Assembly: GCA_965242625.1 (NCBI GenBank)
Contig: CBDEST010000005.1
Span: forward strand, 2,483,767-2,547,766
Direction of reading: 5' to 3'
Length of the DNA stretch: 64,000 nt
DNA from: Bryobacterales bacterium
GTDB taxonomy: Bacteria; Acidobacteriota; Terriglobia; Bryobacterales; UBA6623
This document shows, in pieces, positions 14,169-35,171 of this stretch. Each line of letters opens with the position of its first letter. Within the stretch, counting starts at the first letter, position 1. Both the position numbers and the translations under genes were made by a program. The notes under the pieces are model-generated. The model made no database searches. It had not been told where the DNA came from and saw nothing but the letters and a program-made list of their open reading frames with translations.

Positions 14169-14392
14169 GTTGCCCGCGAGAACGCTCCCGCTCCCCTCCC
14201 CCGGTCACAAGGCCGACACGCCCGAGAGCGGACGGAATCGACCGGAAACGCGCCAAAACACGCGCCGACCTTCCCGTTTCAGCTAGGTTCCCAACATTTT
14301 TTCTGCCCTCGTTGCGAACTAGGATCTGACTTGTCCTTATTCCATATACACTTTCCCCGAAAGCAACTTTTAGGCCCGCTGTTCAGTCCAAG

Positions 14393-14807
14393 TGGTAGCG
14401 CAAGCCTTAAATGTCCGGTTCTGGCAATTTTTAAATGTCCGCTTTTTCGAAGCAGCTGAGCAACATGCCGGACCCAGTGCCACCAAGTCCTGGACCAAGC
14501 CCACCGGCTGCAAGCAGCCGGTGGGCACCGCTACGGCGATCACGCGGCTGTGCCTGGCGGGGCCGGGTACGCGTTGAGCGGCCGAGGCCTGCTGTTGAAT
14601 ACCTCTTTGTCTCGTAGAACACTGTCAGATACGTCCCCAGCCAGCTTGAAGGCCGCTACTGCAGAAAGGAATGTGGGGCTGGCTCTGCCCGCCGCCGCCG
14701 CGAGGTTTTCCTCGGGCATGCAGCGGCCCCGCTGGAAGGAGTGACCGCAACGGTAGGGACGGCCCGGAGGCCGCCCCAGAACCGGACGTTTCAGCTTTGC
14801 TCCGACA
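14393..14807 (+). mobile_element. MITE-400, copy 3
   Basis: TIRs are tggtagcgcaagccttaaatgtccg and cggacgtttcagctttgctccgaca. The body and hairpin are the same as in copy 2. Confidence 0.75.
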
Positions 14808-14862
14808 ATCCGACAATCCGACATTGCACACGACAAAGCCCTGCTGGTCTGGTACTATCCGA

Positions 14863-16449: not shown

Positions 16450-17894
16450 CTAGGCATGTACTTGGCTACAGTAGACCGGAAAACACCACAACATGTTGAT
16501 TCTCGCAGTGGATTGGCACTCGCGGCGAGACACTGGTATCGTGAGCCGAACTAGAATGCTCCGGCGACGGCTGCGACCGCCCCGGAGCGTGGTAGCAATG
16601 GAGGCGCTACATGACACAGCTTTGCAACCGGACGCTGTTCACGGGCGACAACCTGCCCATCTTGCGCGGCATGAATAGCGATTCCGTAGACCTGATCTAT
16701 CTGGATCCTCCGTTCAACTCGAACGCGACCTACTCCGCTCCCGTGGGCAGCGCGGCCGCCGGAGCGGCATTCAAGGATTCGTGGACGCTGGATGATGTGG
16801 ACGCCGAATGGCACGGCCAGATCGCCGACGAGCATCCGGCCCTGTACAAGATCATCGACGGCGCGGGCGCGGCGCACTCAAAGGGGATGCAAGCCTATCT
16901 GATCATGATGGGCGTGCGGATGATCGAGATGGAGCGCATCTTGCGACCTACAGGCTCGATCTACCTGCATTGCGACCCGACCGCCGGGGCCTATCTCAAG
17001 ACGCTCATGGACGCCGTGTTCGGGCGCAAGCAGTTCCGCAACGAGGTCGTCTGGAGCTATCGCCGCTGGCCTGCCAAGCATCCCAACTTTCAGCGGATGC
17101 ACGACACCATCCTGCGGTATGCAGGCGAGGGAGCGACATGGAATCAGCAGTACGAACCGCTCGCGGACTCCACGCGCAAGACCTTTGGCACCAAGCGCCA
17201 AGTCGCCGATTTCTCGAGCGGGCACCGGAAGCCCAGCACTACAGCGAAAGAGTCACCCGGCGCACCTATGCGCGATGTCTGGAGCATCGGCGTCATTGCT
17301 CCAGTCGCGAAGGAGCGGTGCGGGTATCCAACCCAGAAGCCCCTATCGCTGTTGGAGCGCATCATCACGGCCAGTAGCAACGAGGGGGATTACGTCTTCG
17401 ACCCGTTCTGCGGCTGTGCCACCACGCTAGTCGCTGCGGAGAGACTGTCCAGAAAATGGGGGGGGGCCGACCTCTCCGACCTCGCGGTCAAGCTCGTCAA
17501 GCAGCGGATCAAGCGCGAGTTGGGCGGACTGCTCTTCGATGTCATCCATCGGACGGACATCCCCAAGCGCACGGATCAAGGGAAGCTGCCCCACTATCGC
17601 AGTCACGCCCATCGACTCTACGGCGAGCAGGAGGGGCACTGCAAGGCTTGCGGGACGCACTTCCCGTTCCGAGTCATGCATGTCGATCACATCGTGCCAA
17701 AGTCTCAGGGCGGCGGCGATGAATTCGCCAACCTCCAGATGCTGTGCTCCGGTTGCAATGCTCGCAAGGGCACCGGTACGCACGAGCAGCTGCTCGCTCA
17801 TCTGCGAGCGGACGGGATACTGCAAGCGTGAGTATCCATATGGACTTGGCGCGGAAACGAGCACGGTGTCTACTGCAGTTAGGTGCGTGCCTAG
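16450..17894 (+). mobile_element. 1,445-bp TIR-bounded insertion whose only ORF is the MTase-HNH fusion
   Basis: The left TIR is ctaggcatgtacttggctacagtagac (16450-76) and the right TIR is gtctactgcagttaggtgcgtgcctag (17868-94), matching at 21/27 positions. Flanking direct repeats are attccgacgat and attcctacgat. Paralogous spacers at ~1520 and ~3765 are uninterrupted. Confidence 0.65.
16611..17831 (+). CDS. Beta-class N6-adenine/N4-cytosine DNA methyltransferase fused to a C-terminal HNH endonuclease
   Basis: GGAGG lies 6 nt before ATG 16611. Motif IV is IYLDPPFNS near the N-terminus and motif I is VFDPFCGCATT later, which is beta-class order. The C-terminal HNH reads HVDHIVPKSQGGGDEFANLQMLCSGCNARKG. 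Confidence 0.85.
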   Translation: MTQLCNRTLFTGDNLPILRGMNSDSVDLIYLDPPFNSNATYSAPVGSAAAGAAFKDSWTLDDVDAEWHGQIADEHPALYKIIDGAGAAHSKGMQAYLIMMGVRMIEMERILRPTGSIYLHCDPTAGAYLKTLMDAVFGRKQFRNEVVWSYRRWPAKHPNFQRMHDTILRYAGEGATWNQQYEPLADSTRKTFGTKRQVADFSSGHRKPSTTAKESPGAPMRDVWSIGVIAPVAKERCGYPTQKPLSLLERIITASSNEGDYVFDPFCGCATTLVAAERLSRKWGGADLSDLAVKLVKQRIKRELGGLLFDVIHRTDIPKRTDQGKLPHYRSHAHRLYGEQEGHCKACGTHFPFRVMHVDHIVPKSQGGGDEFANLQMLCSGCNARKGTGTHEQLLAHLRADGILQA

Positions 17895-18853: not shown

Positions 18854-19268
18854 TGTTAGCGCAAAGCTGAAATGTCCGGTTCTGGCAATTCTGAAATGTC
18901 CGCTTTTTCGAGGGAGCGGAGCGGCATGCCGGATCCAGTGCTACGACGTCCCGGGCCAAGCCCACCGGCTGCACGCAGCCGGTGGGCACTCTTCCGGCGA
19001 ACGTGCCGAGGTGCCTGGCGGGGCCGGGTACGCGTTGCGCGGCCGAGGCCTGCTGTTGAATGCCTGTTTGTCTTGTAGAACACTGGCTGGTTCGGCCGCA
19101 GCCAGCTTGAAGGCCGCTACTGCAGAAAGGAATACGGGGGTGCCTCCGTCCTCCGCCCCGCGAGGCTTCCCTTGGGCATGACGTGGCCCCGATGGAAGGG
19201 CCGACCGCAGCGGAAGGGACGGCTTGGAGGCCGCCCGGCGAACCGGACATTTAAGGATTGCTCCGACG
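18854..19268 (+). mobile_element. MITE-400, copy 4
   Basis: TIRs are tgttagcgcaaagctgaaatgtccg and cggacatttaaggattgctccgac. The hairpin spans 18961-18986. It sits at the same position in the duplicated unit as copy 2. Confidence 0.75.
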
Positions 19269-19393
19269 AGCTCCAACACACTTGACAACGGGCGATACGT
19301 TGTGGTATGGTTGGATCACTCGGGGCAGAATTCCGATGTCGGGCAAACGCCCGTGCCGACATCACGAAATCGGGCAGGAAGGAGGCGAGAGTT

Positions 19394-20210: not shown

Positions 20211-20340
20211 TCTTAGGGCAAAGCTGAAATGTCCGCTTCGTCGAAGCAGCGAGGCACCGTGCCGGGCCCAGTGCCACAATGTCCCGGGCCCAGTCCACCA
20301 GCCGCAAGCAACCGGTGGGCACCGCTCCACCGATCACGCA
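20211..20340 (+). mobile_element. MITE-400, copy 5 (left ~130 bp only)
   Basis: tcttagggcaaagctgaaatgtccg... follows the MITE body up to ...cgatcacgc and then abuts the IS66 right-end fragment. Confidence 0.6.
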
Positions 20341-20349
20341 ACTGCGACT

Positions 20350-20578
20350 CGTCAGCGGCAACCACGCTGGCCATGGAGCGTTGCGCATGAACATCGAGCT
20401 TGGGGCTCGTCAAGGTGAGGAGGCCGTATCCGTGCAATTGAAATCAGGGCATCCGGGATGCCGGTGCTTGGTCGCGACGCCCTCGACCACATCCTGCCGA
20501 AACTTTCTCAACTAGCCAGACATCAGGTTACCTGAGCCTTCAGGATTGGCTGGGCGTCAGGGGTATCTGGGCAGTTAC
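20350..20578 (+). mobile_element. Solo right end (229 bp) of the IS66-family element
   Basis: It is collinear with 25120..25348 in the same orientation. Homology stops exactly at the TIR ...tcaggggtatctgggcagttac. Confidence 0.8.
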
Positions 20579-20739
20579 CAATCCGCAGTCGCAGAGTGGA
20601 GGGAAGGGGCGCCGGCCGACGATGGAGGGAGCACGGATTCCGGCGTCCAGCACCATCCCGCCCGTGCCTCTCACTCCACTCCGACCGCGCTTCCGCGCCT
20701 CCTCAGCAAACCCGGCGCACGGATTTCCCGCACCGGCCC

Positions 20740-21573
20740 CTAGGCAGTTACCCCCTTGACTGCTTTCTGTTCCCTGAGTCGATAGAGCCCTCGCAGCAGT
20801 AAGACGAGGGCCCGATCAAGGTACGGTGTGTCGGCGAGGTACCGATTCTCTTCCTCGGTCAATCCATTATTCAGGTCCGCCGCCCCGTAGCCCTCGAATT
20901 GGCACTTACCTTCCCATGCGGGCTCGGAGCGCGCGAATGGTGTGACAAGGCCGAGCGTGGCGGCGATGTCGTGAGCGCAGCCCCCGAAACTGCCCACGAG
21001 AAACAGCGCCTGGCGCGCCGAGAGGCTGCACAACGCCTCTTCCGCGATGCCCGGCATGATGCCCTTGTAGCCCTTCACCCTCCCGCCCAGGAGAATCCGG
21101 CAGTCCGTCGCCTCGCGCATCACCCGGCGCATGGCCGTGAGACCTTCGGCCCACTGGTCGTCAGTCGGTTCCGAGCGGCTGGCGACACCGCGATCTAGCA
21201 TTGACACGGCACTGCCGTCTATGCCGAGAAGGGCGAGCCTGCCCACCCCGGACAACTCCTTGGCAGTCTCCTGCAGATCCTGGAACGGGGTCCGTATGTG
21301 GACGGGCCACGCCAAGTAGTTGACGATTCGGATCTCGTCGGGATCTTCGCCGCGAGCGTACCGCTGGGCGAGTTGGAATAGCAGCCTCGTGAAGCCGTAT
21401 TTCCTCAGGTCGCCGCCGTAAGCGAGATCCGCGCCCTGAGCGAGCATGAACGTCGCCAGATCGGCGATCGCATCCTTCAGGTGTCGCTCGCGCAGACCGA
21501 GGGCCGCCATGTCGGGGCTCTCCGAAACAGAAATCGCGACAACTTCCGGACGATCGGGACTCCGGACTGTCAT
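20740..21573 (-). CDS. Stand-alone SLOG/LOG-like Rossmannoid nucleotide-binding protein (tentative)
   Basis: ATG 21573 overlaps the upstream stop (ATGA). Motifs are VVAISVSES, GADLAYGGDLRKYGFT and ILLGGRVKGYKGIMPGIAEEA ... LVGSFGG. No SIR2, TM, Macro or nuclease domain is visible. Confidence 0.5.
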   Translation of the reverse strand: MTVRSPDRPEVVAISVSESPDMAALGLRERHLKDAIADLATFMLAQGADLAYGGDLRKYGFTRLLFQLAQRYARGEDPDEIRIVNYLAWPVHIRTPFQDLQETAKELSGVGRLALLGIDGSAVSMLDRGVASRSEPTDDQWAEGLTAMRRVMREATDCRILLGGRVKGYKGIMPGIAEEALCSLSARQALFLVGSFGGCAHDIAATLGLVTPFARSEPAWEGKCQFEGYGAADLNNGLTEEENRYLADTPYLDRALVLLLRGLYRLREQKAVKGVTA

Positions 21574-22748
21574 GATGGTTGACCCCCTTCCCATTCGCTG
21601 AATGCATGTAACGCGACGTCACTTCGAACTGCGCCGAACAACTTTACCTCGTCCCCCAGCATAGGTGGATCCGGATACACGATCTCCGTCCAGTCCCGCT
21701 CGCCCCGCAGGCTCCGTATCGAGAGCGAAGCCAGTTCCGGTGCGCGGGAAAGAAATAGCGTTCCAGGGTTGTCCTCCTGCAGTTCTTTCGTACGACATAG
21801 CCATAGATAGTGGAGCATTGTTTCGTCAAGAAGGCACCTGATAACGCTTGCGATACAGCCCGTGTCGGATGGATCCATGCGGATCGCGGGCACGTTTCCG
21901 AGATATGGAAACGCTCGTTCGTCTTTAGATCTCACGCAATCGACGACGACCATGGGCACACAATTCTGCTTGGCTTGAAGCACTTCGCGACAGCACCACT
22001 CACGCGAGGAGTAAGTGTCCGTGCGGATCGCCAGCAAGACACTATTCGGAATGGAATCCAAAATGACCTGTTCGAACGAGGAGCCGGGAGCAACGTCTGC
22101 GGTGTCCATGAAGCTTGCGAGAGCGGCATCCTCGTGGATCCAATTGCGAATCCGATTCGCAATGAACTCTCCATATTCGTCACGCTTTGAATGGCTCAAG
22201 AACACTTTGACCTTCTGGCGAGCGGCATCCCGCTGCCCCCTGTCCTCACGGTCACTCGATTTTGCATACCGCTGCCTGAGCATGCGAATGAATGCATGAA
22301 CCAAGTCGCGGACGAGCTTTTCCCTGTGCATGTCGCACTCAAGACGCCATCTATCCCACCTGATCCCTTGCACCCCAAGCCCACCCACGGGCAGGGAGCC
22401 ATCGATCAAGACAGGAAACACGCCGGCGCCGGGCGAACGCCGCGCCGCGCTCTGCTCGAGCTCTTTGAGATATCTGACCGCTCGGGAGTCTTGCACCAAG
22501 TCGCGGTTGAGGAAGACGACTACGGCCGTGGTGTCCGCTCGCTCCCAGTCCACAGGCCCGGGACCGCTCCCCTCGCTGGACAGGGCGCGATACGAGATCT
22601 GAACACGGGCCCCGGCCGTGACATTACGGAACCGGTCTGCATCGAACTGCTCGTGCAGCCAGCCTGCGAGTGCCTCGCCTTCGCTGTATCGCGCGTGCCA
22701 GACGAGATGGAGCGCGAAAGTCGACTTCGTATGGCTCGTCATGCCCAT
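21570..22748 (-). CDS. TIR-domain protein (C-terminal TIR; N-terminal ~170-aa TIR-like alpha/beta region)
   Basis: The C-terminal half reads KVFLSHSKRDEYGEFIANRIRNWI ... VLLAIRTDTYSSREWCCREVLQA. This gives the beta-A FLSHS-x-D motif and the alpha-C S-x-WC-x-x-E motif with the Glu retained. Confidence 0.7.
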   Translation of the reverse strand: MGMTSHTKSTFALHLVWHARYSEGEALAGWLHEQFDADRFRNVTAGARVQISYRALSSEGSGPGPVDWERADTTAVVVFLNRDLVQDSRAVRYLKELEQSAARRSPGAGVFPVLIDGSLPVGGLGVQGIRWDRWRLECDMHREKLVRDLVHAFIRMLRQRYAKSSDREDRGQRDAARQKVKVFLSHSKRDEYGEFIANRIRNWIHEDAALASFMDTADVAPGSSFEQVILDSIPNSVLLAIRTDTYSSREWCCREVLQAKQNCVPMVVVDCVRSKDERAFPYLGNVPAIRMDPSDTGCIASVIRCLLDETMLHYLWLCRTKELQEDNPGTLFLSRAPELASLSIRSLRGERDWTEIVYPDPPMLGDEVKLFGAVRSDVALHAFSEWEGGQPS

Positions 22749-22829
22749 GGCCCTCGGTCTACGCTATTCGATCCCAACCTGCAGGTTCCCGCGAATCCGG
22801 GCACGGTCGGAGCGAAGCGACCCTCACGC

Positions 22830-23396
22830 CTACACAAGCCGCGTGGACCATAGTGCCTTAATCCAACTGTCCAATGCAGCTTGGTTGTGCAAACCCTTCA
22901 GAGCACCGACCACGGCTGGCAAGGGGGGCGCAGGTGCCCCGGCGTTGTACATGATCCGAGCTCGGGGCTTGTCGAGCACATGCGCTCCGCCAACCTCGTA
23001 GCCGATCCACATGGAATCCGCGATCCGAGCAATCACGTGAACCAAGAAACCCCGGCTCACGCGGATTGCCTGCATGATGTGGTCCGGCAAGGCAGGGGAA
23101 CCTGGATCCGTGATCGTGCCGTCCCATTCGGCCATGTACACCGCTACTTTGTGCATGGAAGAAATGTACCTTGCCACGCGCTCCGCGGCTGAGTCGCCCG
23201 TCTTGTGCGACATGAACACCAGCTTCTGGAGCGTCTCAATGTGCGCGGGCGTGAAATTGAGTCTCCGCAGGGAGTCCGCTGTGTCATCACGCAGGAGCGC
23301 TCGTACTGCCCGCTCCGCATCATCGCGTCCGACGATGTCGGAACTTACGTGCTCGCCGAGAACGATCCTCTTGAATTTGATAGCAATGGACTGCAT
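22830..23396 (-). CDS. TIR-like (ThsB-like / DUF1863-type) protein
   Basis: AGGAGG lies 9 nt before ATG 23396. Motifs are KLVFMSHKTGDSAAERVARYI ... VAVYMAEWD ... ADSMWIGYEVGGAHVLDKP. Confidence 0.55.
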   Translation of the reverse strand: MQSIAIKFKRIVLGEHVSSDIVGRDDAERAVRALLRDDTADSLRRLNFTPAHIETLQKLVFMSHKTGDSAAERVARYISSMHKVAVYMAEWDGTITDPGSPALPDHIMQAIRVSRGFLVHVIARIADSMWIGYEVGGAHVLDKPRARIMYNAGAPAPPLPAVVGALKGLHNQAALDSWIKALWSTRLV

Positions 23397-23436
23397 GCGA
23401 CAGACCTCCTGAGCCGCTTCTCAGTGTAGCAGACGT

Positions 23437-25348
23437 GTAACTGCCCAGATACCCTGATCGGGCTTGGTTGCAGCGATGGGTAGCGGGCATGGCTGGCGGA
23501 TGTCGTACTAGGTGCGGCTCGGAGCGGAGCGGGGGTGCTGTCGAGGAGGTAGTTGACAGGGGCGTGCAAGCACATGTAACGTAGGAATTGTTCTGAGGGC
23601 GCGGGCACTCGGGCAAGTCATGGCGGCAGCGTTCCCAACGGCGGAGCAACAGCCGGGGGCGGCAGGTGGGCTTGAACAGCTCCAACAGCGGCAAGCCGCC
23701 CTCCAGCGACGGGCTGCGCAAGCCGCGGCGCAGCCAGAGCACCCGGGGCGGTTCCGGCAAGCCTTCGGGCGGCCAGCCCGGCCATCCGGGCACGACGCTG
23801 AAGCAAACCGCCGACCCGGATCACATCGAGACGCACCGGCCGGCGCACTGTGCCGGCTGCGGCGCGCCGCTGACGGCGGCCGACAGCGTGAGCTACGCGC
23901 GGCGGCAAGTGTTCGACTTGCCGCCGCCGCGCGTCGAAGTCACCGAGCACCAAGCGTACCCCTGCCAGTGCCCAGCCTGCGGGCACCGGACGCGGGCGGA
24001 ATTCCCCGACAGCGTACGCGTCCCGGTGCAATACGGCCCGCGGATCCAGGCCATGGCGGTGTACCTGCAGAACTGGCACTTGCTGCCCGAGGATCGCCTG
24101 GCGGAGCTGTTCCGGGACCTGCACGGCGTCGGCATCAGCGCGGGGACGCTGGCGAACATCACGCGCCAGGCGGCGGATGGCTGGCGGGCGTGCAGCGAGC
24201 GGATCCGGGATCTGCTGGTGGCCGCGGACGGCCCGAAGCACTTGGACGAGACGGGTTTCCGGATCACGGCGTGCGGGCAGTGGCTGCACGTGGTCTGCAC
24301 GCGGTGGCTGACGTTCTACCGCACGAGCGAGCGGCGCGGCAGCCTGCTGGCCGGCTTGCGCGGCTGCTTGGCGCACGATCACTGGAAGCTGTATTTCACG
24401 GTGCCGGACGTGCAGCACGCGCTGTGCAACGCGCATCACCTGCGCGAGTTGGAAGTGCTGGCGGAGATCGACGGGGAGGCGTGGGCGCGCCCCATGCAGG
24501 ACTTGCTGCGGATGGCGAGCCGCGCGGCGGGGATCGCGACCGAGGAGGGCTGGACCCTGCCGCCGGATCTGGTGGGATGGTTCGAGCAGCGCTACGACCG
24601 CTTGGTGGCGGGGGCGCTGGAGTACCACGAGGGGCTGGAGCCGTTGCGCCCGGCGGGCAAGGGCCGGAAGGGACGCCCGAAGCGGTGCCCGGGGCACAAT
24701 CTGGCGTTGCGGTTCCGGGACTTCAAGACGGAGACGCTGCGCTTCCTGCACGAGCCCGGGGTGCCGTTCACGAACAACCAAGCGGAGCGGGACCTGCGCA
24801 TGATGAAGCTGCGCATGAAGATCTCGGGCGCGTTCCGCTCGGCGCAGGGTGCCGCGGATTTCGCCACGTTGCGCGGCGTGCTGTCGACCGCGCGGAAGCA
24901 AGGTCGGAACCGCATCGAGGCGCTCATGCAAGGTCCGGCCGTGCTGCTCGAAGGCCTGCGCTGCTAGCGCGCGCCCGGCACCCGCCCCGCTGGTCCGGCC
25001 CCGCCGGTACCGGGCGGCGGTGCGCCCCGCCGCCGGATGGGAGGCGAGGATGTCTTGCGCTAGTCCGCCCCCAAGCATGCGGGGCGGCCGTTGGGCGAAG
25101 TGCTGCGAGACGGGTCTGTCGTCAGCGGCAGCCACGCTGGCCATGGAGCGTTGCGGATGAACATTGAGCCCGGGGCCCGTCAAGGTGAGGGGGCCGTATC
25201 CGTGCAATTGAATTCAGGGCATCCAGGATGCCGGTGCTTGGTCGCGACGCCCTCGACCACATCCTGCCATAACTTTCTCGACTAGCCAGACATCAGGTTG
25301 CCTGAGCCTTCAGGATTGGCTGGGCGTCAGGGGTATCTGGGCAGTTAC
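23437..25348 (+). mobile_element. IS66-family insertion sequence (single tnpC-type ORF)
   Basis: TIRs GTAACTGCCCAGATACCCTGA and its imperfect inverse lie at the ends. A GTAA start is typical of IS66. The flanking 8-mers differ (gcagacgt vs taacattc). Confidence 0.85.
23666..24967 (+). CDS. tnpC: IS66-family transposase TnpC; start/N-terminus uncertain
   Basis: Motifs are LNSSNSGKPPSSDG, the zinc-finger-like CAGCGAPL...CQCPACG, HLDETGFRI, LCNAHHLRE and FTNNQAERDLRMMKLRMKISG. The track start is GTG, and no leucine-zipper N-terminus is seen. Confidence 0.85.
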   Translation: MGLNSSNSGKPPSSDGLRKPRRSQSTRGGSGKPSGGQPGHPGTTLKQTADPDHIETHRPAHCAGCGAPLTAADSVSYARRQVFDLPPPRVEVTEHQAYPCQCPACGHRTRAEFPDSVRVPVQYGPRIQAMAVYLQNWHLLPEDRLAELFRDLHGVGISAGTLANITRQAADGWRACSERIRDLLVAADGPKHLDETGFRITACGQWLHVVCTRWLTFYRTSERRGSLLAGLRGCLAHDHWKLYFTVPDVQHALCNAHHLRELEVLAEIDGEAWARPMQDLLRMASRAAGIATEEGWTLPPDLVGWFEQRYDRLVAGALEYHEGLEPLRPAGKGRKGRPKRCPGHNLALRFRDFKTETLRFLHEPGVPFTNNQAERDLRMMKLRMKISGAFRSAQGAADFATLRGVLSTARKQGRNRIEALMQGPAVLLEGLRC

Positions 25349-25410
25349 TAACATTCTTAATTGGCTAGGGGGCATGTGCTCTGTGTCAAGCGGCAGACGC
25401 TCGCTAGGCG

Positions 25411-26394
25411 TCACTCTGAGGGTGGGGCGGACACGTGAGTCTCTCCGACGCTAACGCTTAAGACGAACCCCATCAACGACCGCACCTTCACGACAACACC
25501 ATCATACGGCCCGTCGTACCATCCGAGAAAGCCATCCTCACGCCACTGTCTACTATCGTCAGCGTCTCTAAATAGACTTCTCATCCTAACGTGCTGACCT
25601 ATAAATAGAGACCTACGAACCTCACGTCTATCACGCAAGGATACGCCCGTAACTATAAGATAAAAGTGTGCTACCCTGCTAGACTTACGTTCCTCAATCG
25701 TGGCTGTAGGAAATCTGCCCCCGTCAAAAAACTTGCGCTGATAGGCATGTCCATCATATAGCAAATCCTGTAGAGCGTCCCCGTACATCAGTCCGCCGGA
25801 CATGTTAGACCGTAAGAATAGATTGTCACCAATTTGTAGTATCTGCACGTATGTCCGTTGAATTTTATCAATACATCCATATTCCCCTGAGTCGTCTATC
25901 CACTCCTTATCGCCAGTCGTGTTGAAATCATCTATTGCTTCAAATATCATCTGAATCCATATGCAGACAATCCACCTAAGTCGGTATATTTCACACATGA
26001 TAAACATACGCATAGATCGTCGCGTCAGACACCCTCGGTGCTTATTCCTGCCACCAGCTATCCAACTTGTTATGACGTTAGACACCGCTTGAAGTGGTTT
26101 TATTCGATATCGGCGCGCATCGTCATTTAGTGACCAAGAAATATTTTCATCATAGCTAGTGTGTCGGGCTACGAACTCACTTAGCCATGCATACCCCCTA
26201 GACATAGCCCATTGCCCGACGATCAGATTCCATAGAATTAGCACGGCAGATAGATTGACACTACCGCATAGAACTGCATATAGCGACACACAGATTGTCA
26301 TTAGGGCCACGACAGCCCCGACACTATCGCGCCTGCTGGCCTTGATGGAGTAATGCTTCCTAGCATTTAGTTGCCAATGTGTATTCTGTCTCAT
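25411..26394 (-). CDS. Orphan membrane protein in strongly AT-rich DNA
   Basis: ATG 26394 (MRQNTHW) is the likely start. Predicted TM helices are VGAVVALMTICVSLYAVLCG, LSAVLILWNLIVGQWA and IYRLRWIVCIWIQMIF. Hand GC counts are 40-52% against 68% in the adjacent IS. I recognised no family. Confidence 0.5.
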   Translation of the reverse strand: MRQNTHWQLNARKHYSIKASRRDSVGAVVALMTICVSLYAVLCGSVNLSAVLILWNLIVGQWAMSRGYAWLSEFVARHTSYDENISWSLNDDARRYRIKPLQAVSNVITSWIAGGRNKHRGCLTRRSMRMFIMCEIYRLRWIVCIWIQMIFEAIDDFNTTGDKEWIDDSGEYGCIDKIQRTYVQILQIGDNLFLRSNMSGGLMYGDALQDLLYDGHAYQRKFFDGGRFPTATIEERKSSRVAHFYLIVTGVSLRDRREVRRSLFIGQHVRMRSLFRDADDSRQWREDGFLGWYDGPYDGVVVKVRSLMGFVLSVSVGETHVSAPPSE

Positions 26395-26423
26395 CCTAAT
26401 CACCGCCCCGCATCCAATGGGTG

Positions 26424-26525
26424 TTATATACCAATCGATGCGTCCAGATTGTAGATCGTCTGGACGGGTTGCGCCGGAGCGGCGATGCCGCACACCAGCA
26501 CGGCGATGATGAGCAAGATAGTCAT
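26424..26525 (-). CDS. 33-codon hydrophobic peptide ORF
   Basis: GGAGG lies 7 nt before ATG 26525. The peptide is MTILLIIAVLVCGIAAPAQPVQTIYNLDASIGI*. It ends 29 nt before the 26394 start. Confidence 0.4.
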   Translation of the reverse strand: MTILLIIAVLVCGIAAPAQPVQTIYNLDASIGI

Positions 26526-27165
26526 GTAGCACCTCCTACATGCTGCCATGCGCCGGGGCGGTTGCGGCCGTCGCCGACGCGACTTCGATTCGGAATCATG
26601 ATACCAGCGTCGCGGCACGGGTGTCAAGATCGGAAAAATCCATTATGGCACAAGGGCTTGGCTACTTTGGTATATGATTCCTGTTGAGAACCACGTGCGG
26701 TCGAGCGATACATCTCGCGATCAAATCAATTTGACCCATGAACAGCGACAAGCGACTTGCACGATGAGTCGTGAACTGCTGGGGTATTCGCTTCGTGAGC
26801 GTGAAGTGCTCGGCAATCGAGATCGGTTCGAGCTCACGGTACGGTTCTCCTCAATCAGCGATTGCGACCGCAGCATCGTGCTCGCCGAGGTCTCACAATG
26901 GAAGGTTTGCGTCCCATGAGAGACACCGCATTCTCGCCCACCGCCGAGCAGCGTTGGATCCTTGCCCGAATCAACCCTGACTCGCCCCGCGACATCAGTT
27001 CCCGCGCGGATGTCCTTTGGGGCTATGGTGTCCTCTATCGCAAGCACGGGGTCCGCAAGCCGTCCACCGCATACAGGGATGGCGAACCGGTCCATCGCAA
27101 TCACCCGCTCGCCTTGACTTGCTGGATATGGGCGAACCTCGACCCGCACTGGGCACCGTCCACTA

Positions 27166-27950: not shown

Positions 27951-28115
27951 TAGCTACCCGCTCTCGATTTACTCCCGCGGCGACTGGCCTGCACCGGAAC
28001 TCTGGCCAGAGGGCAAGGTCGGAAGCCCAAGCCCCGTGCCGGACACCAACCCAGCCCGACTCAAGAACGCTCCGTACTTCCCCATCGAACCATTGGAGAC
28101 ATGCGAGGAACCGCC

Positions 28116-29333
28116 ATGACCATTGCCGAGATGCTGGATCGGGAGGATGTCCTGATCTTCGATACCGAGACCACGGGGTTCGCCAAGTGGTCCGAGATCG
28201 TCGAGATTTCGATCATCGACACACGGGGCGATGTGCGACTCAACACTGTTGTCATGCCCCGTGGCACCGTGCTGGAGGACGTGGTCAAGGTCCACGGCCT
28301 CACCAAGGAGCGGCTAGCCGAGATGGACGCCCCGCAGTGGACAGACGTATTCAAGAAAGTCCAAGCGGTCCTCGGAGGCGCGCAAGTACTCGCCGCGTAC
28401 AACTTCGCCTTTGACCGGCGGATGATCGAGCAGACCAATCAGAAGCACCGCACCGGATTCGATCCGTACATCAAGATGCCGTCGAACTGCTGCATCCTGC
28501 GCGAGTACAAGCGGTTTGTCCGCCTCGGCCTGACCGACCTCGAACTTCCTTCATCCAATAATCTGTCCGAAGCCTACACCGCTCTAACCGGCGAGGAACC
28601 TTCGGATGAGCACCGAGCACTCCCCGATTGTCTGGCGACGCTCGCGGTCATGCGCGTCATGGCAAGGCACTACCGCGAAGCTGGTTGCTCGCGGACTGTC
28701 GAACTTTCCACCGCTCCCCGCTACACACCGCCGACGTCGAGGCGAGCGGAAGGCAAGCAGTTCGCCATCACCGGCAAGTTCGCCAAAATGTCTCGATCCG
28801 TACTGGTAGGTTTGATCCAGAGCGGCGGCGGCAGTGTCACTCAATCTGTCAGCCCACGCACTGATTACTTGGTTCGTGGCAACAGCCCCGGCAAGACCAA
28901 GACGAGGGGCGCGAACGAGCACGATGTAAGAGTCATCGGCATTGCCGAGGTACTGAAGATGCTTGGTTCCCATGAGGTCAAGACTGATACCGTGCATGAT
29001 GAACCGGTGCCGGTGGGCACGGTCAGAGAAAACGTAAAGCGTCCGCCGATCAATCCGGCCAACTTCAGAGGGTATGAGCAACCGGAGTGCCGCGGTACTG
29101 CGCTTGCAGGCAAGCGGCTCGCCATAACTGGAGTGTTTGCGGAGTTCTCCCGCCGCGAAGTCCAGACATTGATCTCAGACCATGGCGGAGAGGTGACGAA
29201 CCACATAAGTCGCAAGACTGATTACTTGGTCGCTGGAGAGCGGGCTGGATCCAAGCTCGCCAAGGCCGGGAAGGCGGGCACTTCTGTCATCACCATCCAC
29301 CAGCTCCTGAATATGATCCAGCCCCACGAATAG
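28116..29333 (+). CDS. DEDDh 3'-5' exonuclease (DnaQ/epsilon-like) fused to two BRCT domains
   Basis: Exo I is LIFDTETTG, Exo II is AAYNFAFDRRM and Exo III is HRALPDCLATL. Two LigA-type BRCT repeats follow (GKQFAITGKF...TDYLVRG; GKRLAITGVF...TDYLVAGERAGSKLAKA). GAGGAA lies 6 nt before ATG 28116. Confidence 0.8.
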   Translation: MTIAEMLDREDVLIFDTETTGFAKWSEIVEISIIDTRGDVRLNTVVMPRGTVLEDVVKVHGLTKERLAEMDAPQWTDVFKKVQAVLGGAQVLAAYNFAFDRRMIEQTNQKHRTGFDPYIKMPSNCCILREYKRFVRLGLTDLELPSSNNLSEAYTALTGEEPSDEHRALPDCLATLAVMRVMARHYREAGCSRTVELSTAPRYTPPTSRRAEGKQFAITGKFAKMSRSVLVGLIQSGGGSVTQSVSPRTDYLVRGNSPGKTKTRGANEHDVRVIGIAEVLKMLGSHEVKTDTVHDEPVPVGTVRENVKRPPINPANFRGYEQPECRGTALAGKRLAITGVFAEFSRREVQTLISDHGGEVTNHISRKTDYLVAGERAGSKLAKAGKAGTSVITIHQLLNMIQPHE

Positions 29334-30269: not shown

Positions 30270-33200
30270 CTAGGGAGCCAGTTCCGCTCCGAATGCTCCC
30301 TGGATGGGGCCTCTCTCCTCGCCGACGCCGAAGAGTTCGCTGAAGACGTTGAGTTGCCACGTCCCCAGCATGCCGATAGGACCGCTGGGAGTGTTGCCGA
30401 TAAACCGGCCTGACAGCTCGCCCGTGAGGTCGCTGTGACTTACAGACGAAGGCGGGGTTGGATTGCTGGTGATAGTCCAGAATTCCTCCGAGCCATCGAG
30501 ATAGAGGAAGGATAGCTCGCCGCCCCCGTAGTTGTTCATGGCGACAGGGACTTCCAAGTTCAACTGCGCTCTGTGCAGGCGCGCCAAGTTCCCCTCCGGG
30601 CTTGCCGGAGCCGAGATCAGCGGAACGTCCGCGTAGAGTTCGACGTCGTTGAGTTCGGCTACGTCGAATCCACTGAAACGGGGAGCCCAAGTGACGACTA
30701 GATCCTCCGCCCCGTCTTCAGCTGGCTTGAAGAAAAATCTCCCGTTCGAGGCATTATACGAGCGTTGAAGGGGGCTAGCTCCCCCTTGCACCAACCGGCC
30801 GTCCACCGTGTCCAGTTCCACCGACACGTCGTCGAGGTCGCTGCTGAACCCGAGAACGCTGCGATCGTCGCCGTAATTGGCGATCTCTCCCGCGAAAGTC
30901 ACCGACTTGACTTCCGGCAGCACGGCCGAATTGACCAAGTCCGCCCGCCCGAACTGCAGCGCGCCGAACGCCGGGTTGGTCGAGCGGAGATCGCTGACCT
31001 TGACGCGCACTTGGCCGCCAACCTCGGCCGCGTTCCACTCCACCCGCGCTTCGACGCTGCCCCTGTAGAACTGGTTGTTCTGGGCCGCCACCGTGCTGCC
31101 CACGTAGCGGGCTAGCACGTTGGTGGAGCCGCTCGCCGGGTATTGCGGCTGATCCGCGGCTTCATAGGCTCGCGTCGGAGCCACTGGACTGTACGCGAAC
31201 GCCCCGATCCCGCCGAAGGGTCGGGAATCCGGGTCGGAGCTATCGATCAATCCGGCGCCCGCGAACGGGGACTCCTGCTTGCGCCAAGCCCCGAAACGGG
31301 TGAAGTCGGTCTTGCCGGTCTGGAGCAAGAGCCTCGATTTGGGTCGGCTGTAGATAGCGCTGAGCGACGCGCTCGCGACCACCGGATTCGTGCTCTGGCC
31401 CGCGAAGACACCGCCGCTGTCGAACGCCGCCTCGAACGCTTCCATGTTTTCCAGCGCCGCGACGATGTCGTCGATTTCCGCCAGCACCTCCCTGTCCTGC
31501 GGGTCGTTGCTGGAGTTGACGGGGTAGTTGAGCCAGGCGGTCCACTTGCCCTCGATAGCCTGCGGTGTCTCGACCGCGCCGCTGTCCGGCGTCAGGACGC
31601 CGGTGTTGAACCCGGGGACCACCACCGGTCCGGCACCGGGCGTAGTTACCCCGTCTTCAACGCGGGCAGCACGAATCTCCGGGATATCCGGGCCGAAGAT
31701 CTTGCGCATCTCCGCTTGGATCGCCGAGAAGACTTCCTGCCGTCGGTCGTTCGCGAACGTGGCGTCGACATCGCCCAGATTGATCAGCTGCTGGAGCCGG
31801 GCCCGCTGCTTGATGACCTCCGCCCGGACCTCGCTCACGTGCGTGGCCTTGATCACCTCCTGCTGCGCGGCTAGGGCCACCTCGTCGGTCGAGGTGACGG
31901 GATACTCGAGTGCGAAGAGCTTGGCCCGGTCCAGTTCGAACACGGTCTGGGCATCGAAATTCACGAACCCGTCGCGCGTCCGGATCCGGACTTCGCCGAC
32001 ATCCGCGTCCGGGCCGACATCACCCCCTGGTGTGGTTATGACTATAGGTCTTGTCGTGTCTCGAACGGAAACCGGCACTAAAGCGTTAATGCCCTCGGCT
32101 GTTCCTCGACCTACATTAGGATTGGGACACGTACCGGCACCGCCGGGACACGCGAACGAGTCCACGGCGCCCTCGATTCCGTATGTCGACCAAGGGATCC
32201 ATCTAACCCGATAGCCCAATTGCGTCGTGGTTGTTTCGGGCAGCGTGAGTTCCACCTCGTACTGCTCCACGGCGCTCCCGCCCAGGCTGTCCGACGAAAT
32301 CTCGAGCTTCGTGTCGCCCGGCTTGATTTCCGGGGGCGCGCTGCTGTCGGTGAGCCACACGCTGGCGGGGTTCGCCGCCGACCCGCCCACCTTGCTCAGG
32401 TCATTTTTCAGAGCCGCGTTCGGGTCGAGCCGTTCGACGCGTTCCACGCCGAACCCGCCGGCCAGGATCTCCTCGTCCACGGCCAGTCGCCACGTGCCGA
32501 TCGCCTCGGTTCCTGCCTCGTCGCCCCGGCCCAGCAGCCGGCCCGAGAAGCGCCCGCCTTCGAAGACGGTGTCCGTTCTGCTCCCGACCCCCGGCATGTA
32601 GGAGATGCGCCCCTCGCCGGTGCCGGTCCGGACTCGCCACGAGCCGCGCCTCTCCAGCGAGGCCCTCGGAAGCACGAAGTGGGACACGTCGCCGCCCAAG
32701 CCGAAGCTCCACGCCTCGCCCGTGTTCGAGTCGGCGAGCCCCCGCACCAAGCCGTCCACGTCTCGCGCTGCGAAGTTCACCGTGATTTCCATCGTGCCTT
32801 GGTAGAGGGTGCCCTCCTGGTCCGCGGCGTGCGTGACGCCCGCGTAGTACCCGTTGCCCGCGGTCTGGACGTCGCTCGCCCGCATGGTCGGCTCCATCGT
32901 CGACCACGCGAATCCCTGCGCCCTGTCCGCGCCTCCGGGGCCCGCGGCCGCGTGATCCGTCTCGTTGTACACCGCCGCCCCGAACCGCGTCGAGCCCAGG
33001 ACTCCCAGCGTGCTCGTAGCGGTCCACTTCACGCGGTTGAACGCGGCTTTCGCCTGCGCTTCCGTGCGCTCCGGGAATCCCAGCAAGCGGTCGGGTCCGT
33101 TCTCTTTCGTCGCCGCCACCAAGGCTTCTTCGGTGCTCAGCGCTGCGATGACCCCGTCGAACGCCTCCAGCACGCGGTTCTGGGACACGATGCGCTCGAG

Positions 33201-35171
33201 CAACTCCACTATCACCTGGTTTCCATTCTCCAGCACCGGGTCTCCATCGGCGTCCCTCTGAATCAAATCCAAGCCGAAGAGCCCGGCCACCAACTTATCC
33301 GCAGCGTCCCATTGCAGGCCCACCTGCGTGTCGAACGCCGTGGAACTGATGCCGTCGGCCTCTCGCAACTCGACGAGGCCCTCCACCCGGTCGCGAATCT
33401 TTATCATGTCGTCGCGCGCCTCGGCGACCAAGTTCGGTCCCGTCGCCACGGCTCGGCCGCTGCCCAGTAGGTCGTCCATCGAGAGGGTCGCGCCCAGCGC
33501 GTTCAGCATGGTGCCGGTCTCGTCGGCGGCCGTCTCGGGGTCGTCCGTGCTCAGGCTCGGCCGACCGTGCGTGTCGACCGCGTTCGTGTGCATCGCCGTG
33601 CCGACGATCGGCACGTCGAAGCGCGTGCCGGCCAGCATGCCTTCGTCGTCCTTGGACACGCGGAACATAGCCCCGTCCGGTCCGGTGATCTCCCCCATGC
33701 CGGACGCCGGCAGATTCGCATCGCCCACGTCGTATCCGCTGCCGTCCTCCCGCGCCGAGGCGGTCAAGCCCGTGCCCGCGATGACCATCGTCATGGGCCG
33801 GTATGCCGCCGCCCACGTGCCGCCGGTCAGCGTCAGCTCGTACTCGTTGGCGGCGCCGGTGGCGTCGTTCTCGGCACCCTCCACCCGGTCGCCGGACGCG
33901 ACCGATGCCTCGCCCTGCATCCAGCGACCCTGCTCGTCGGTCGCCAGTTCGACGCTCATGCCGCTGGTACCCAACCTCACGGACTGCCGCGTGGGCTCGT
34001 GCATGGCCGACCACTCGCCGGCGTCGCGCATGCTCAGCCGGTAGGTCTGCCCGAAGGAATTCTGCGTGACCCCGCCGTCCTCGACAGCGGTGCCGTCCTC
34101 GAAGGACCACCCGCCGGCCTCGGTCGTCATCAGCCGCACCGTCTCTTGGCTGCCGCCCAGGTCCACGACCCGGGGCGTCGCGATGAACGCCGCCATCCAC
34201 ATGCCGTCGTCGTCCATCGTCAGGCGGTACCGGTTGTCGTTCTCCGCGGTTGCCACGTAGCCCTCGAGCACTACGCTGTCACCCAGCGCCCAGCCGCCGG
34301 CTTCGGTACTCGTCAGCATGACGGTGTCGCCGCTCGTGCCGAGCGTCACGCTCTGCGTCATCGGCATGAACATCGCCATCCACATGCCGTCGTCGTCCAT
34401 CGTCAAGGTGTAGCTGAGAGTGCCCACCATGTGGGTATCGGTGCCGTCGCCGGCCAGTTCCATCTCGCCGAGCATCCACACGCCCGCCTCGTTGGTCATC
34501 AGCTCGACCGTGTTGTCGCTCTTGCCGAGCGTCACGGTCTGCGTCATCGGCATGAATGTCGCCATCCACATGCCGTCGTCGTCCATCGTCAAGGTGTAGC
34601 GGGCGCCCTCGGTACTGGTTGCCAGGCCGCCGGCCTCGAACGCGGCGCCGTCCATCGAGAAGCCGCCGGCCTCGGTGGTCATCAGCGTGGCGGACTCGCC
34701 GCTTGCGCCGAGGGGGACCATGACCTCCATCGGCTGGAACGCAGCCGACCAAGTCCCGTCGGCCAGCGTCAGCACGTACGTCCGGCCGCCCTCGCCCTCG
34801 ACGGGGCTCTCGGCCCCGCCCGTGAAGGCCTCTCCATCGAGCGTGAAGCCGCCGGCCTCGGTGGTCATCAGCGTCAACGTGCCGCCGCTGTCGCCAAGCG
34901 CGACCTCGACCGCCTCCGGCTGGAACGCCGGAGGCGGGGCGGGCGCCGGAGCTGGCGGAGTCGCGACGGGCGCGGGTTCGTCGCCGCCGCAACCGGCCCA
35001 GCCGAGCGCCACCAAGGCGCACAGCGCGAGCACGGCCCCGCGTCCAGTTCTGAAATCTGTGGTTGAAGGCTTGGAAGAAAGCACGCAATGCACCCCTATC
35101 GTTCGAATACCGTTCTGTGCCAGAGACTGGCCGGTGGGGAGTGACTCGATGTACACACCATCCCGAACCAA
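30270..35171 (-). CDS. Giant repeat-rich putative surface lipoprotein with TbpB/fHbp-like C-terminal beta-barrel motifs (tentative)
   Basis: The signal with Cys reads RGAVLALCALVALGWAGCGGDE. The track start is TTG, and GTG 35084 is plausible. There are ~8 modules of ~55-60 aa (LMTTEAGG...Y-LTMDDDGMWMA-F-P). The C-terminus reads GRFIGN...GTW......GAFGA. Confidence 0.6.
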   Translation of the reverse strand: MVRDGVYIESLPTGQSLAQNGIRTIGVHCVLSSKPSTTDFRTGRGAVLALCALVALGWAGCGGDEPAPVATPPAPAPAPPPAFQPEAVEVALGDSGGTLTLMTTEAGGFTLDGEAFTGGAESPVEGEGGRTYVLTLADGTWSAAFQPMEVMVPLGASGESATLMTTEAGGFSMDGAAFEAGGLATSTEGARYTLTMDDDGMWMATFMPMTQTVTLGKSDNTVELMTNEAGVWMLGEMELAGDGTDTHMVGTLSYTLTMDDDGMWMAMFMPMTQSVTLGTSGDTVMLTSTEAGGWALGDSVVLEGYVATAENDNRYRLTMDDDGMWMAAFIATPRVVDLGGSQETVRLMTTEAGGWSFEDGTAVEDGGVTQNSFGQTYRLSMRDAGEWSAMHEPTRQSVRLGTSGMSVELATDEQGRWMQGEASVASGDRVEGAENDATGAANEYELTLTGGTWAAAYRPMTMVIAGTGLTASAREDGSGYDVGDANLPASGMGEITGPDGAMFRVSKDDEGMLAGTRFDVPIVGTAMHTNAVDTHGRPSLSTDDPETAADETGTMLNALGATLSMDDLLGSGRAVATGPNLVAEARDDMIKIRDRVEGLVELREADGISSTAFDTQVGLQWDAADKLVAGLFGLDLIQRDADGDPVLENGNQVIVELLERIVSQNRVLEAFDGVIAALSTEEALVAATKENGPDRLLGFPERTEAQAKAAFNRVKWTATSTLGVLGSTRFGAAVYNETDHAAAGPGGADRAQGFAWSTMEPTMRASDVQTAGNGYYAGVTHAADQEGTLYQGTMEITVNFAARDVDGLVRGLADSNTGEAWSFGLGGDVSHFVLPRASLERRGSWRVRTGTGEGRISYMPGVGSRTDTVFEGGRFSGRLLGRGDEAGTEAIGTWRLAVDEEILAGGFGVERVERLDPNAALKNDLSKVGGSAANPASVWLTDSSAPPEIKPGDTKLEISSDSLGGSAVEQYEVELTLPETTTTQLGYRVRWIPWSTYGIEGAVDSFACPGGAGTCPNPNVGRGTAEGINALVPVSVRDTTRPIVITTPGGDVGPDADVGEVRIRTRDGFVNFDAQTVFELDRAKLFALEYPVTSTDEVALAAQQEVIKATHVSEVRAEVIKQRARLQQLINLGDVDATFANDRRQEVFSAIQAEMRKIFGPDIPEIRAARVEDGVTTPGAGPVVVPGFNTGVLTPDSGAVETPQAIEGKWTAWLNYPVNSSNDPQDREVLAEIDDIVAALENMEAFEAAFDSGGVFAGQSTNPVVASASLSAIYSRPKSRLLLQTGKTDFTRFGAWRKQESPFAGAGLIDSSDPDSRPFGGIGAFAYSPVAPTRAYEAADQPQYPASGSTNVLARYVGSTVAAQNNQFYRGSVEARVEWNAAEVGGQVRVKVSDLRSTNPAFGALQFGRADLVNSAVLPEVKSVTFAGEIANYGDDRSVLGFSSDLDDVSVELDTVDGRLVQGGASPLQRSYNASNGRFFFKPAEDGAEDLVVTWAPRFSGFDVAELNDVELYADVPLISAPASPEGNLARLHRAQLNLEVPVAMNNYGGGELSFLYLDGSEEFWTITSNPTPPSSVSHSDLTGELSGRFIGNTPSGPIGMLGTWQLNVFSELFGVGEERGPIQGAFGAELAP
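33730..34950. repeat. In-frame tandem module repeats (~170 bp) inside the giant gene
   Basis: Recurring peptide blocks are V-LG-SG-...-L-T-EAGGW/F ... YTLTMDDDGMWMA-FMPMTQ. The coordinates are approximate. Confidence 0.6.

Follow-up and report, generated by a model that had tools for sequence, protein, structure and literature searches.

A TIR, TIR and SLOG cluster2 gene cassette from a Bryobacterales bacterium and its place in a widespread family of predicted Thoeris-like systems

We analyzed a stretch of 64,000 nucleotides (hereafter, the window) from a Bryobacterales bacterium of the Acidobacteriota (assembly GCA_965242625.1, contig CBDEST010000005.1, positions 2,483,767 to 2,547,766 of the forward strand), and in particular a cassette of three adjacent genes. 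An earlier reading of this DNA, made from the letters alone (the sequence-only reading), had described three genes on the minus strand, and our check of the open reading frames (ORFs) found all three where it had placed them. Gene 1 (22830..23396, minus strand) encodes a small and divergent ThsB-like TIR protein of 188 amino acids. Gene 2 (21570..22748, minus strand) encodes a three-domain TIR protein of 392 amino acids, and gene 3 (20740..21573, minus strand) encodes a stand-alone SLOG cluster2 protein (PF18163) of 277 amino acids, which we call SLOG2. As far as can be judged from these sequences and their relatives, the cassette is a typical representative of a Thoeris-like family that is very widespread, known from computation, and predicted in function.

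The stop codon of gene 2 (TGA, 21570-21572) and the start codon of gene 3 (ATG, 21571-21573) share an ATGA overlap (21570..21573, minus strand), which is plain in the sequence and had been noticed before. With this overlap, genes 2 and 3 are predicted to be translationally coupled, here and in most relatives. A longer ORF for gene 3, with an alternative in-frame start at 21594, gets no support from the alignment of its homologues. The gap between genes 1 and 2 is 81 nucleotides. On the minus strand ahead of the ATG of gene 1 (at 23396), an AGGAGG ribosome-binding site can be read directly at 23405..23410; the site had been reported correctly, but the spacing is 8 nucleotides rather than 9. A consensus scan of the cassette for promoters and terminators gave nothing that exceeds chance. 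The cassette had also been called AT-richer than its surroundings. The direction is right, but the difference is mild: its GC content is 60.5% and that of the window 64.0%, and the cassette ranks at the 7th percentile among windows of the same size.

Gene 3 matches the Pfam family PF18163 (LD_cluster2, or "SLOG cluster2") over its full length (E = 2.5e-67; 227.7 bits, where the cut-off is 25.3). Pfam yields nothing else for this protein, and there is no model for it in PADLOC (v2) or in NCBIfam. Its identity to over 100 stand-alone homologues is 47-98%. The alignment and an AlphaFold2 model (predicted local distance difference test, or pLDDT, 84.5; predicted template modelling score, or pTM, 0.86) divide it into a SLOG core (about amino acids 8-220) and a conserved helical tail (amino acids 221-277); the motifs are YGGDL (52-56), LGGRV (162-166), MPGIAEEA (173-180), and GSFGGC (194-199). 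A sequence-profile search for relatives of solved structure found none. The sequence-only reading had proposed to fold the protein and to compare it with the SLOG domain of ThsA, and the model does match that domain: the best Foldseek matches in the PDB were the TRPM2 chanzyme with ADP-ribose (ADPR), the SLOG domain of BcThsA with the cyclic ADP-ribose isomer 3'cADPR (7uxs/8btp), and EcThsA. LOG proteins (1t35, 5zbl, 7w2i), MCP, and DprA were more distant fold matches. By the model, then, the fold of gene 3 appears to be nearest to the SLOG domains that bind ADPR or cyclic ADPR (cADPR). The family match and the fold matches to the SLOG domains of ThsA and TRPM2 bear out the earlier SLOG-like call. 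It had been a concern that gene 3 might be a housekeeping ortholog of LOG or DprA; searches of Pfam and NCBIfam found no match to LOG (Lysine_decarbox), to DprA, or to an NCBIfam equivalog at E ≤ 1.

The TIR domain of gene 2 (amino acids 176-275; 21924..22223, minus strand) is recognized by Pfam's TIR_2 model (amino acids 182-271, E = 1.3e-9, 39 bits, cut-off 28). It includes the motif TDxYSSREWCxxE, which is invariant across an alignment of 33 gene-2 homologues. E255, the glutamate of WCCRE, is likewise invariant in the 33 homologues and aligns with the catalytic glutamate of the plant Roq1 TIR, so we predict that the TIR of gene 2 has intact catalytic residues, with E255 as the catalytic glutamate. 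This agrees with the earlier TIR call and with the glutamate that had been seen as retained. The sequence-only reading had also reported an N-terminal region of about 170 amino acids. The AlphaFold2 model (pLDDT 82.4) shows that this is a real alpha/beta domain (amino acids 1-168; 22245..22748, minus strand), which is conserved in the gene-2 family and belongs to no known family, but a second alpha/beta domain at the C terminus had been missed (amino acids 276-392; 21570..21923 with the stop codon, minus strand). The C-terminal domain is conserved and unclassified as well. Neither domain has a detectable relation to TIR (by hhalign) or to any family.

For gene 1, the TIR call stands on profile-profile comparison and fails by Pfam's own threshold. 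Its match to TIR_2 (22.7 bits, E = 1.5e-4) is under the cut-off, and its match to PADLOC's ThsB model has E = 8.9e-6. When we used hhalign to compare the gene-1 family to TIR profiles that contained no members of the gene-1 family, the probabilities were 91-96.5%, and E134, in WIGYE, fell on the catalytic glutamate. The TIR-like core covers roughly amino acids 54-140 (22977-23237, minus strand), with E134 as the putative catalytic residue. Among the loci that we examined, close homologues of gene 1 were found only in a sister contig of the window and at three loci from Arenicellales.

To see how the cassette is organized elsewhere, we examined the best 80 of 190 stretches that encode a relative of gene 3, from contigs of one genome per species (loci are numbered with L below). 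The gene-3 family has 1,423 matches in a database clustered at 90% identity, and the top 120 of these are all 267-313 amino acids long with PF18163 as their only domain; in a library clustered at 50%, 2,488 representatives match at E ≤ 1e-3. The 80 loci come from Chloroflexota, Acidobacteriota, Binatia, Gemmatimonadota, Latescibacterota, Bacteroidota/Rhodothermales, Alpha-, Beta-, and Gammaproteobacteria, "Entotheonella", and Nitrosopumilaceae archaea (about ten phyla, plus archaea, overall). A homologue of gene 2 was found at 73 of the 80 loci. At 66 of the 80, an intact gene 2 immediately precedes gene 3, and the overlap at the junction is almost always the same; the other cases are copies that are disrupted by insertion sequences (IS), frameshifted, or degraded. 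Genes 2 and 3 are an obligate pair.

The third gene is less uniform. Of the 66 intact pairs, 51 have another TIR ORF that is either fused or at most 400 bp away in the same orientation, and 56 have one within 3 kb. Most of these extra ORFs have 140-220 amino acids, and Pfam confirms ThsB_TIR or TIR_2 on examples. They may be upstream or downstream of the pair, are sometimes multiple, and come from different, unrelated clades; the cassette in the window has two TIR genes, and the operons of relatives have up to four or five. A validated ThsB from type IX Thoeris (IMG 2639430608) shares 42-53% identity with some of the small TIRs beside split pairs. Across phyla, the mean column identity is 59% for gene 2 and 66% for gene 3, and the small TIRs are far less conserved. 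Because genes 2 and 3 are conserved so far above the small TIRs, they fit an effector module rather than a phage sensor. The trio is thus the normal architecture, with a constant pair (genes 2 and 3) and a variable third TIR, and the earlier question of whether the three families recur as a conserved neighborhood can be answered in the affirmative.

In some relatives, the pair is a single protein. On a plasmid of Priestia megaterium, a "TIR domain-containing protein" of 686 amino acids corresponds to the whole of gene 2 at residues 5-374 (hhalign E = 1e-47) and to SLOG2 at residues 398-684 (E = 4e-35), and the same fusion is present in Gloeothece PCC 7424 and in Aureispira. Among the 150 best representatives of the family, 30 have 654-744 amino acids with SLOG2 at the C terminus, and for two of them Pfam confirms TIR_2 plus LD_cluster2. 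We inspected three fused loci (L086, L088, L090), and extra TIR genes were nearby in all three.

SLOG2 is also fused to other domains at its own C terminus. At four loci (L017, L024, L033, and L038; confirmed by Pfam for L017) the partner is a ThsB-type TIR, and at L091 (2826-7405) it is a patatin phospholipase, which gives a protein of 1,134 amino acids (P0263). With either partner, a homologue of gene 2 is still immediately upstream with a 4-nucleotide overlap; at L091, a 392-amino-acid homologue of gene 2 is followed by the overlap, by SLOG2-patatin, and then by ThsB-type TIRs. In Rhizobium mongolense (L051, 2903-5872), a member of the same patatin family is encoded by a separate gene upstream of the pair, and there is no small TIR. 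These sequences point to the patatin as a facultative, putatively membrane-lytic effector of the SLOG2 module. Another protein, P0398 (1,051 amino acids), combines a calcineurin-like phosphoesterase (metallophosphatase) with gene 2 and SLOG2. Since SLOG2 is fused to TIR, to patatin, and to metallophosphatase-TIR, it looks like a sensor module that is placed on swappable enzymes, much as the SLOG of ThsA is placed on SIR2.

A few other arrangements of SLOG cluster2 turned up in the same survey. P0279 and P0331 (about 880 amino acids) have TPR repeats fused to the C terminus of SLOG2. L073 (6741-9038) has a possible read-through of Schlafen-AlbA_2/HATPase_c_4 into SLOG2 within a type I restriction-modification (R-M) operon. 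In Rhizobium lusitanum (L071, 5743-6657), a second, partial SLOG cluster2 ORF of 304 amino acids, which matches only the C-terminal half of the model, is directly upstream of the gene-2 homologue.

Systems that combine TIR with a stand-alone SLOG protein are already known, namely type III Thoeris and the neighborhoods of Pfam's "SLOG cluster2". The name "SLOG cluster2" reportedly goes back to the comparative-genomics survey of Burroughs et al. of 2015 in Nucleic Acids Research (NAR), which is said to describe TIR-associated neighborhoods as a prediction only. Gene 3 is a full-length and high-scoring member of PF18163, and a TIR neighborhood is the hallmark of that family; the present analysis adds the relation between split and fused forms of gene 2 and SLOG2, the rate at which a third TIR occurs, and the alternative fusions. 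Eleven types of Thoeris are distinguished in a 2025 preprint (10.64898/2025.12.03.692087). By its summary of van den Berg et al. (2024, Cell Host Microbe), type III has four TIRs and a "SLOG domain-containing effector". The cassette resembles type III in having several TIR genes together with a small stand-alone SLOG protein that has no other domain, and TIR1 and TIR4 of type III are weakly similar to TIRs of the SLOG2-cassette family. However, the type III-like loci that we reached through homologues of the published TIR4 (L081 and L082, which are not from the original strain) carry SLOG cluster3 (PF18180, about 190 amino acids) instead of cluster2, and they lack a three-domain TIR protein of the gene-2 type. 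SLOG2 and PF18180 have no significant profile similarity (hhalign probability 0.9%, E = 0.06), and NCBIfam's ThcB4 model gives gene 2 just 32 bits, where its cut-off is 220. Given the different SLOG families, we ruled out filing the cassette under type III.

In type IX Thoeris, a ThsB that makes 3'cADPR works with ThsJ (IMG 2538300522 / 2639430607), a "TIR and SLOG" effector, and the system defends B. subtilis (Yirmiya et al. 2025 preprint). The cassette likewise joins a ThsB-type TIR to a putative TIR/SLOG effector, and the proteins in which genes 2 and 3 are fused fit the description of ThsJ, a likeness at the level of description. As mentioned above, one type IX ThsB is similar to small TIRs beside split pairs, but TIR and SLOG are separate genes in the window, with a 4-nucleotide overlap. 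The cluster of ThsB proteins that matches these small TIRs is promiscuous across Thoeris types (10.64898/2025.12.03.692087). ThsJ may use another SLOG family; the neighbors of type IX ThsB homologues on plasmids proved to be type I, type II, or unrelated TIR proteins.

Type I Thoeris (ThsB with ThsA, which is SIR2-SLOG) would share the principle of a TIR generator and a SLOG sensor for an ADPR-derived signal, and the model of SLOG2 matches the SLOG structures of BcThsA and EcThsA. In contrast to type I, the cassette has no SIR2, its SLOG family is different (12-16% identity; template modelling score 0.4-0.6), its putative effector is a TIR, and its sensor and effector are separate but coupled genes. 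As for the TIR-SAVED and TIR-STING effectors of cyclic oligonucleotide-based antiphage signalling systems (CBASS), the proposed principle is similar, in that a ligand-binding domain drives the oligomerization of a TIR NADase, but the sensor has another fold, the signal is a cyclic oligonucleotide, and homology is limited to the TIR domain. In sum, with TIRs whose predicted catalytic glutamates align (E255 and E134) and with a SLOG partner (PF18163), the Thoeris-like logic that the sequence-only reading had seen in this cassette appears sound.

We tentatively favor the view, with confidence that falls somewhat short of even, that the three genes form an anti-phage system with NAD signalling of the Thoeris type, built on an obligate TIR-SLOG module, with gene 1 as the generator, SLOG2 as the receptor, and the TIR of gene 2 as an NADase effector. 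Gene 1 would act like ThsB: it would sense infection and convert NAD+ to an ADPR-derived signal. SLOG2 would bind that signal, and ligand-bound SLOG2 would drive the assembly and activation of the TIR of gene 2 as an NADase, so that NAD+ would be depleted and the infection would abort. On this view, a "TIR + SLOG" effector would be encoded in two parts, by genes 2 and 3. Because gene 2 and SLOG2 are an obligate pair, either coupled or fused, a TIR NADase effector inside the cassette is the simplest reading. No SIR2, transmembrane, protease, or nuclease domain was found in the cassette by Pfam or PADLOC. The sequence-only reading had described a module with no recognizable effector, which we would revise, given that gene 2 and SLOG2 are coupled or fused and that SLOG2 is also fused to patatin or to a ThsB-type TIR. 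Going by the sequences, one of the two TIR proteins of the cassette (a putative NADase) is the most likely candidate for the killing effector.

Which of the two TIRs is the generator and which is the effector is the least certain step. That the small TIRs are ThsB-like (diverse, often multi-copy, and variable in position) counts for gene 1 as the generator. Several points weigh against the favored reading as a whole. Seven intact pairs lie inside long contigs and have no third TIR within 3 kb. The C-terminal fusions of SLOG2 (L017, L091) fit gene 2 as the signal generator equally well. We found no experimental test of the SLOG cluster2 family in the literature, and in type IX Thoeris, the 3'cADPR that ThsB produces did not trigger the effector (Yirmiya et al. 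2025 preprint).

If the roles are reversed, then gene 2 would be a dedicated signal generator whose N- and C-terminal domains sense infection, SLOG2 would be the receptor, and the effector would be on the C-terminal side of SLOG2, in cis or in trans (here gene 1 as the NADase; elsewhere patatin or a fused ThsB-type TIR). The fusions of SLOG2 to patatin (P0263/L091) or to ThsB_TIR (L017, L024, L033, L038), with gene 2 upstream, argue for this arrangement, as does L051, where the pair is accompanied by a separate patatin gene and no small TIR, and gene 2 is the only invariable TIR. But in 30 of the 150 representatives, the generator would be fused to its own receptor without obvious purpose, and pairs without a third gene would have no effector. 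Also, the strong conservation of gene 2 from phylum to phylum is not typical of phage sensors; it is the small TIRs that are diverse and multi-copy, like ThsB. Overall we consider the reversal unlikely, though it deserves real weight. Another possibility, and quite an unlikely one in our view, is that genes 2 and 3 are self-contained: SLOG2 would sense a nucleotide from the host or the phage, or else the low-level product of gene 2 itself (a positive feedback), and the small TIRs would only add inputs. Two-gene loci without a further TIR do exist (such as L066 and L009), single-protein fused forms are common, and a preprint reports a stand-alone TIR-SAVED effector that responds to a host signal. 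The extra TIR genes near 56 of the 66 intact pairs, and near all three fused loci, speak against a module that needs no partner.

It is also conceivable that SLOG2 is an enzyme, a LOG-like N-glycosidase or phosphoribohydrolase that would process the product of the TIR, or some other nucleotide, to yield a second messenger or a metabolite that is toxic or depleted. LOG enzymes belong to the SLOG superfamily, and the LOG structures 1t35, 5zbl, and 7w2i are among the fold matches. The alignment shows an invariant PG(I/V)AEE motif along with many invariant polar residues, and this motif resembles the PGGxGTxxE motif of LOG. However, a conserved motif with a glutamate reportedly binds ribose in ThsA too, according to structural work on ThsA with 3'cADPR, the best fold matches are SLOGs that bind ligands and are not catalytic (MHR1/2 of TRPM2, and ThsA), the Pfam match to LOG (Lysine_decarbox) is absent, and fusions of SLOG2 to bona fide effector enzymes recur, a pattern that is usual for sensor domains. 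The type III Thoeris literature does name a stand-alone SLOG protein as the "effector". Nothing in our analysis points to LOG-type chemistry by SLOG2, and we think that such an enzyme is very unlikely.

No effector beyond the cassette would be needed under our favored reading, the reversal of roles, the self-contained module, or the enzymatic SLOG2. The sequence-only reading had suggested that the effector might be encoded elsewhere, by an ORF nearby (given as 25411..26525). This ORF (25411-26532, minus strand; 373 amino acids with hydrophobic stretches) is adjacent, AT-rich, and of unassigned function; it lies within a segment of 49.6% GC (25352-26734). It has no match in Pfam, PADLOC, or NCBIfam and no homologue in the 80 loci. 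There is a metagenomic sister contig (L085) that is 95% identical to the window, at the DNA level, across 20349-23438, and it keeps the trio and both outer flanks, but the segment with this ORF is missing. We conclude from its absence from so similar a contig that the segment is probably a recent insertion beside an IS66 element. We therefore ruled out this ORF as a missing effector. As for a decayed remnant, all three genes in the window are intact and retain the residues that are invariant in their families, and a housekeeping function like that of LOG or DprA would be at odds with the lack of any LOG, DprA, or NCBIfam housekeeping match for gene 3. An effector elsewhere, a remnant, or a housekeeping role all seem extremely improbable.

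A bolder idea is that gene 2 and SLOG2 act on their own as a TIR-SLOG switch, which a new TIR-derived nucleotide sets off and which then amplifies itself, with SLOG2 as the hub that recruits TIR or patatin. We consider this rather unlikely. By analogy, the behavior of 3'cADPR in type IX hints that the known cADPR isomers may not be the ligand of SLOG2. If the idea were true, then this family (about 2,500 clusters at 50% identity, from archaea to E. coli and to Klebsiella plasmids) would be a distinct branch of Thoeris, in which the signal is new and sensor and effector form a heteromeric complex. More broadly, type III Thoeris is a validated defence system of TIRs and a stand-alone SLOG that raises the question of effector and signal, and in the SLOG2 family this question returns on a much larger scale and with stronger conservation. 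The relation between the split and fused forms of gene 2 and SLOG2 leads to a testable model, a TIR NADase under the control of a SLOG sensor. For annotation, PF18163 next to a TIR protein of about 390 amino acids should be treated as one defence module, which PADLOC v2 does not call.

Orthologous cassettes are present in tractable bacteria. In E. coli UK_Dog_Liverpool (L089, 1939082-1942985; DL545_RS10065-10085), the cassette consists of genes for a hypothetical protein and two small TIRs along with gene 2 and gene 3, and among 5,426 complete genomes of E. coli, 39 have the pair. In K. pneumoniae (L087), the conjugative IncFIB/IncHI1B plasmid pKpnB199 carries the pair between copies of ISNCY, with a divergent small TIR (D8663_RS00575-00585). 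Wang et al. (2024) tested most of the TIR clusters of E. coli, which may or may not include the SLOG2 cassette. "SLOG Patatin" operons, whose SLOG may or may not be SLOG2, showed no defence in E. coli (10.64898/2025.12.03.692087).

The sequence-only reading had also placed the cassette in a defence island, and the surroundings of its relatives fit with this. In about 20 of the 80 loci, the module is between hsdM/hsdS and hsdR of a type I R-M operon, and other neighbors include AIPR, DUF3800, and larger TIR proteins. A recurrent module beside the pair comprises a small TIR, Nmad2, MazG/MazG_C, and a protein like uracil-DNA glycosylase (UDG), sometimes with a protein like 5-hydroxymethyldeoxyuridine (5-hmdU) DNA kinase and a thymidylate synthase (L012, L020, L037, L045, L060, L064, L071, L077, L080, and L089). 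This TIR-Nmad2-MazG module may work together with the pair, or else it may be a defence of its own, predicted to involve nucleotide modification. There were no relatives among the viral contigs of IMG/VR.

The cassette had been described as bracketed by IS66 ends, as a mobile unit would be. There is indeed IS66 sequence on both sides: a solo end remnant of 233 nucleotides (20349..20581) lies downstream of gene 3, outside of the system, and an IS66-family element (23437..25351, plus strand; DDE_Tnp_IS66 and zf-IS66 by Pfam) lies upstream of gene 1. The remnant is a direct repeat, at 94% identity, of the end of the full element (25119-25351). But these copies do not delimit a unit. In L085, a whole IS66 is downstream of gene 3 and there is none upstream of gene 1, and synteny shows that the full IS66 in the window (23437-25351) is an insertion relative to L085. 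With IS positions that differ between contigs that are 95% identical, and with conserved flanks, we ruled out the IS66 copies as the borders of a mobile unit.

Some features of the two contigs may be of separate interest. The IS66 of L085 (12161-16420) is split by the reverse transcriptase gene of a group II intron (RVT_1 and GIIM). A repeat of about 430 bp adjoins IS elements at least twice in the window (14392-14816 and 18854-19287, with a fragment at 20218-20324) and twice in L085 (8865-9301 and 19350-19755), and it may be a non-autonomous mobile element. About 3 kb from the cassette, one ORF (16611-17831, plus strand) joins an N6/N4 DNA methyltransferase to a C-terminal HNH nuclease; judging by these domains, it is possibly an R-M-like or orphan defence gene. 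Farther away in the window are a PSCyt1/PSCyt2/PSD1 protein of a kind that is typical of Planctomycetota (37154-40495, minus strand), an RNase_T exonuclease that is fused to BRCT domains (28101-29333, plus strand), and an ORF of 1,633 amino acids without a Pfam match (30270-35171, minus strand).

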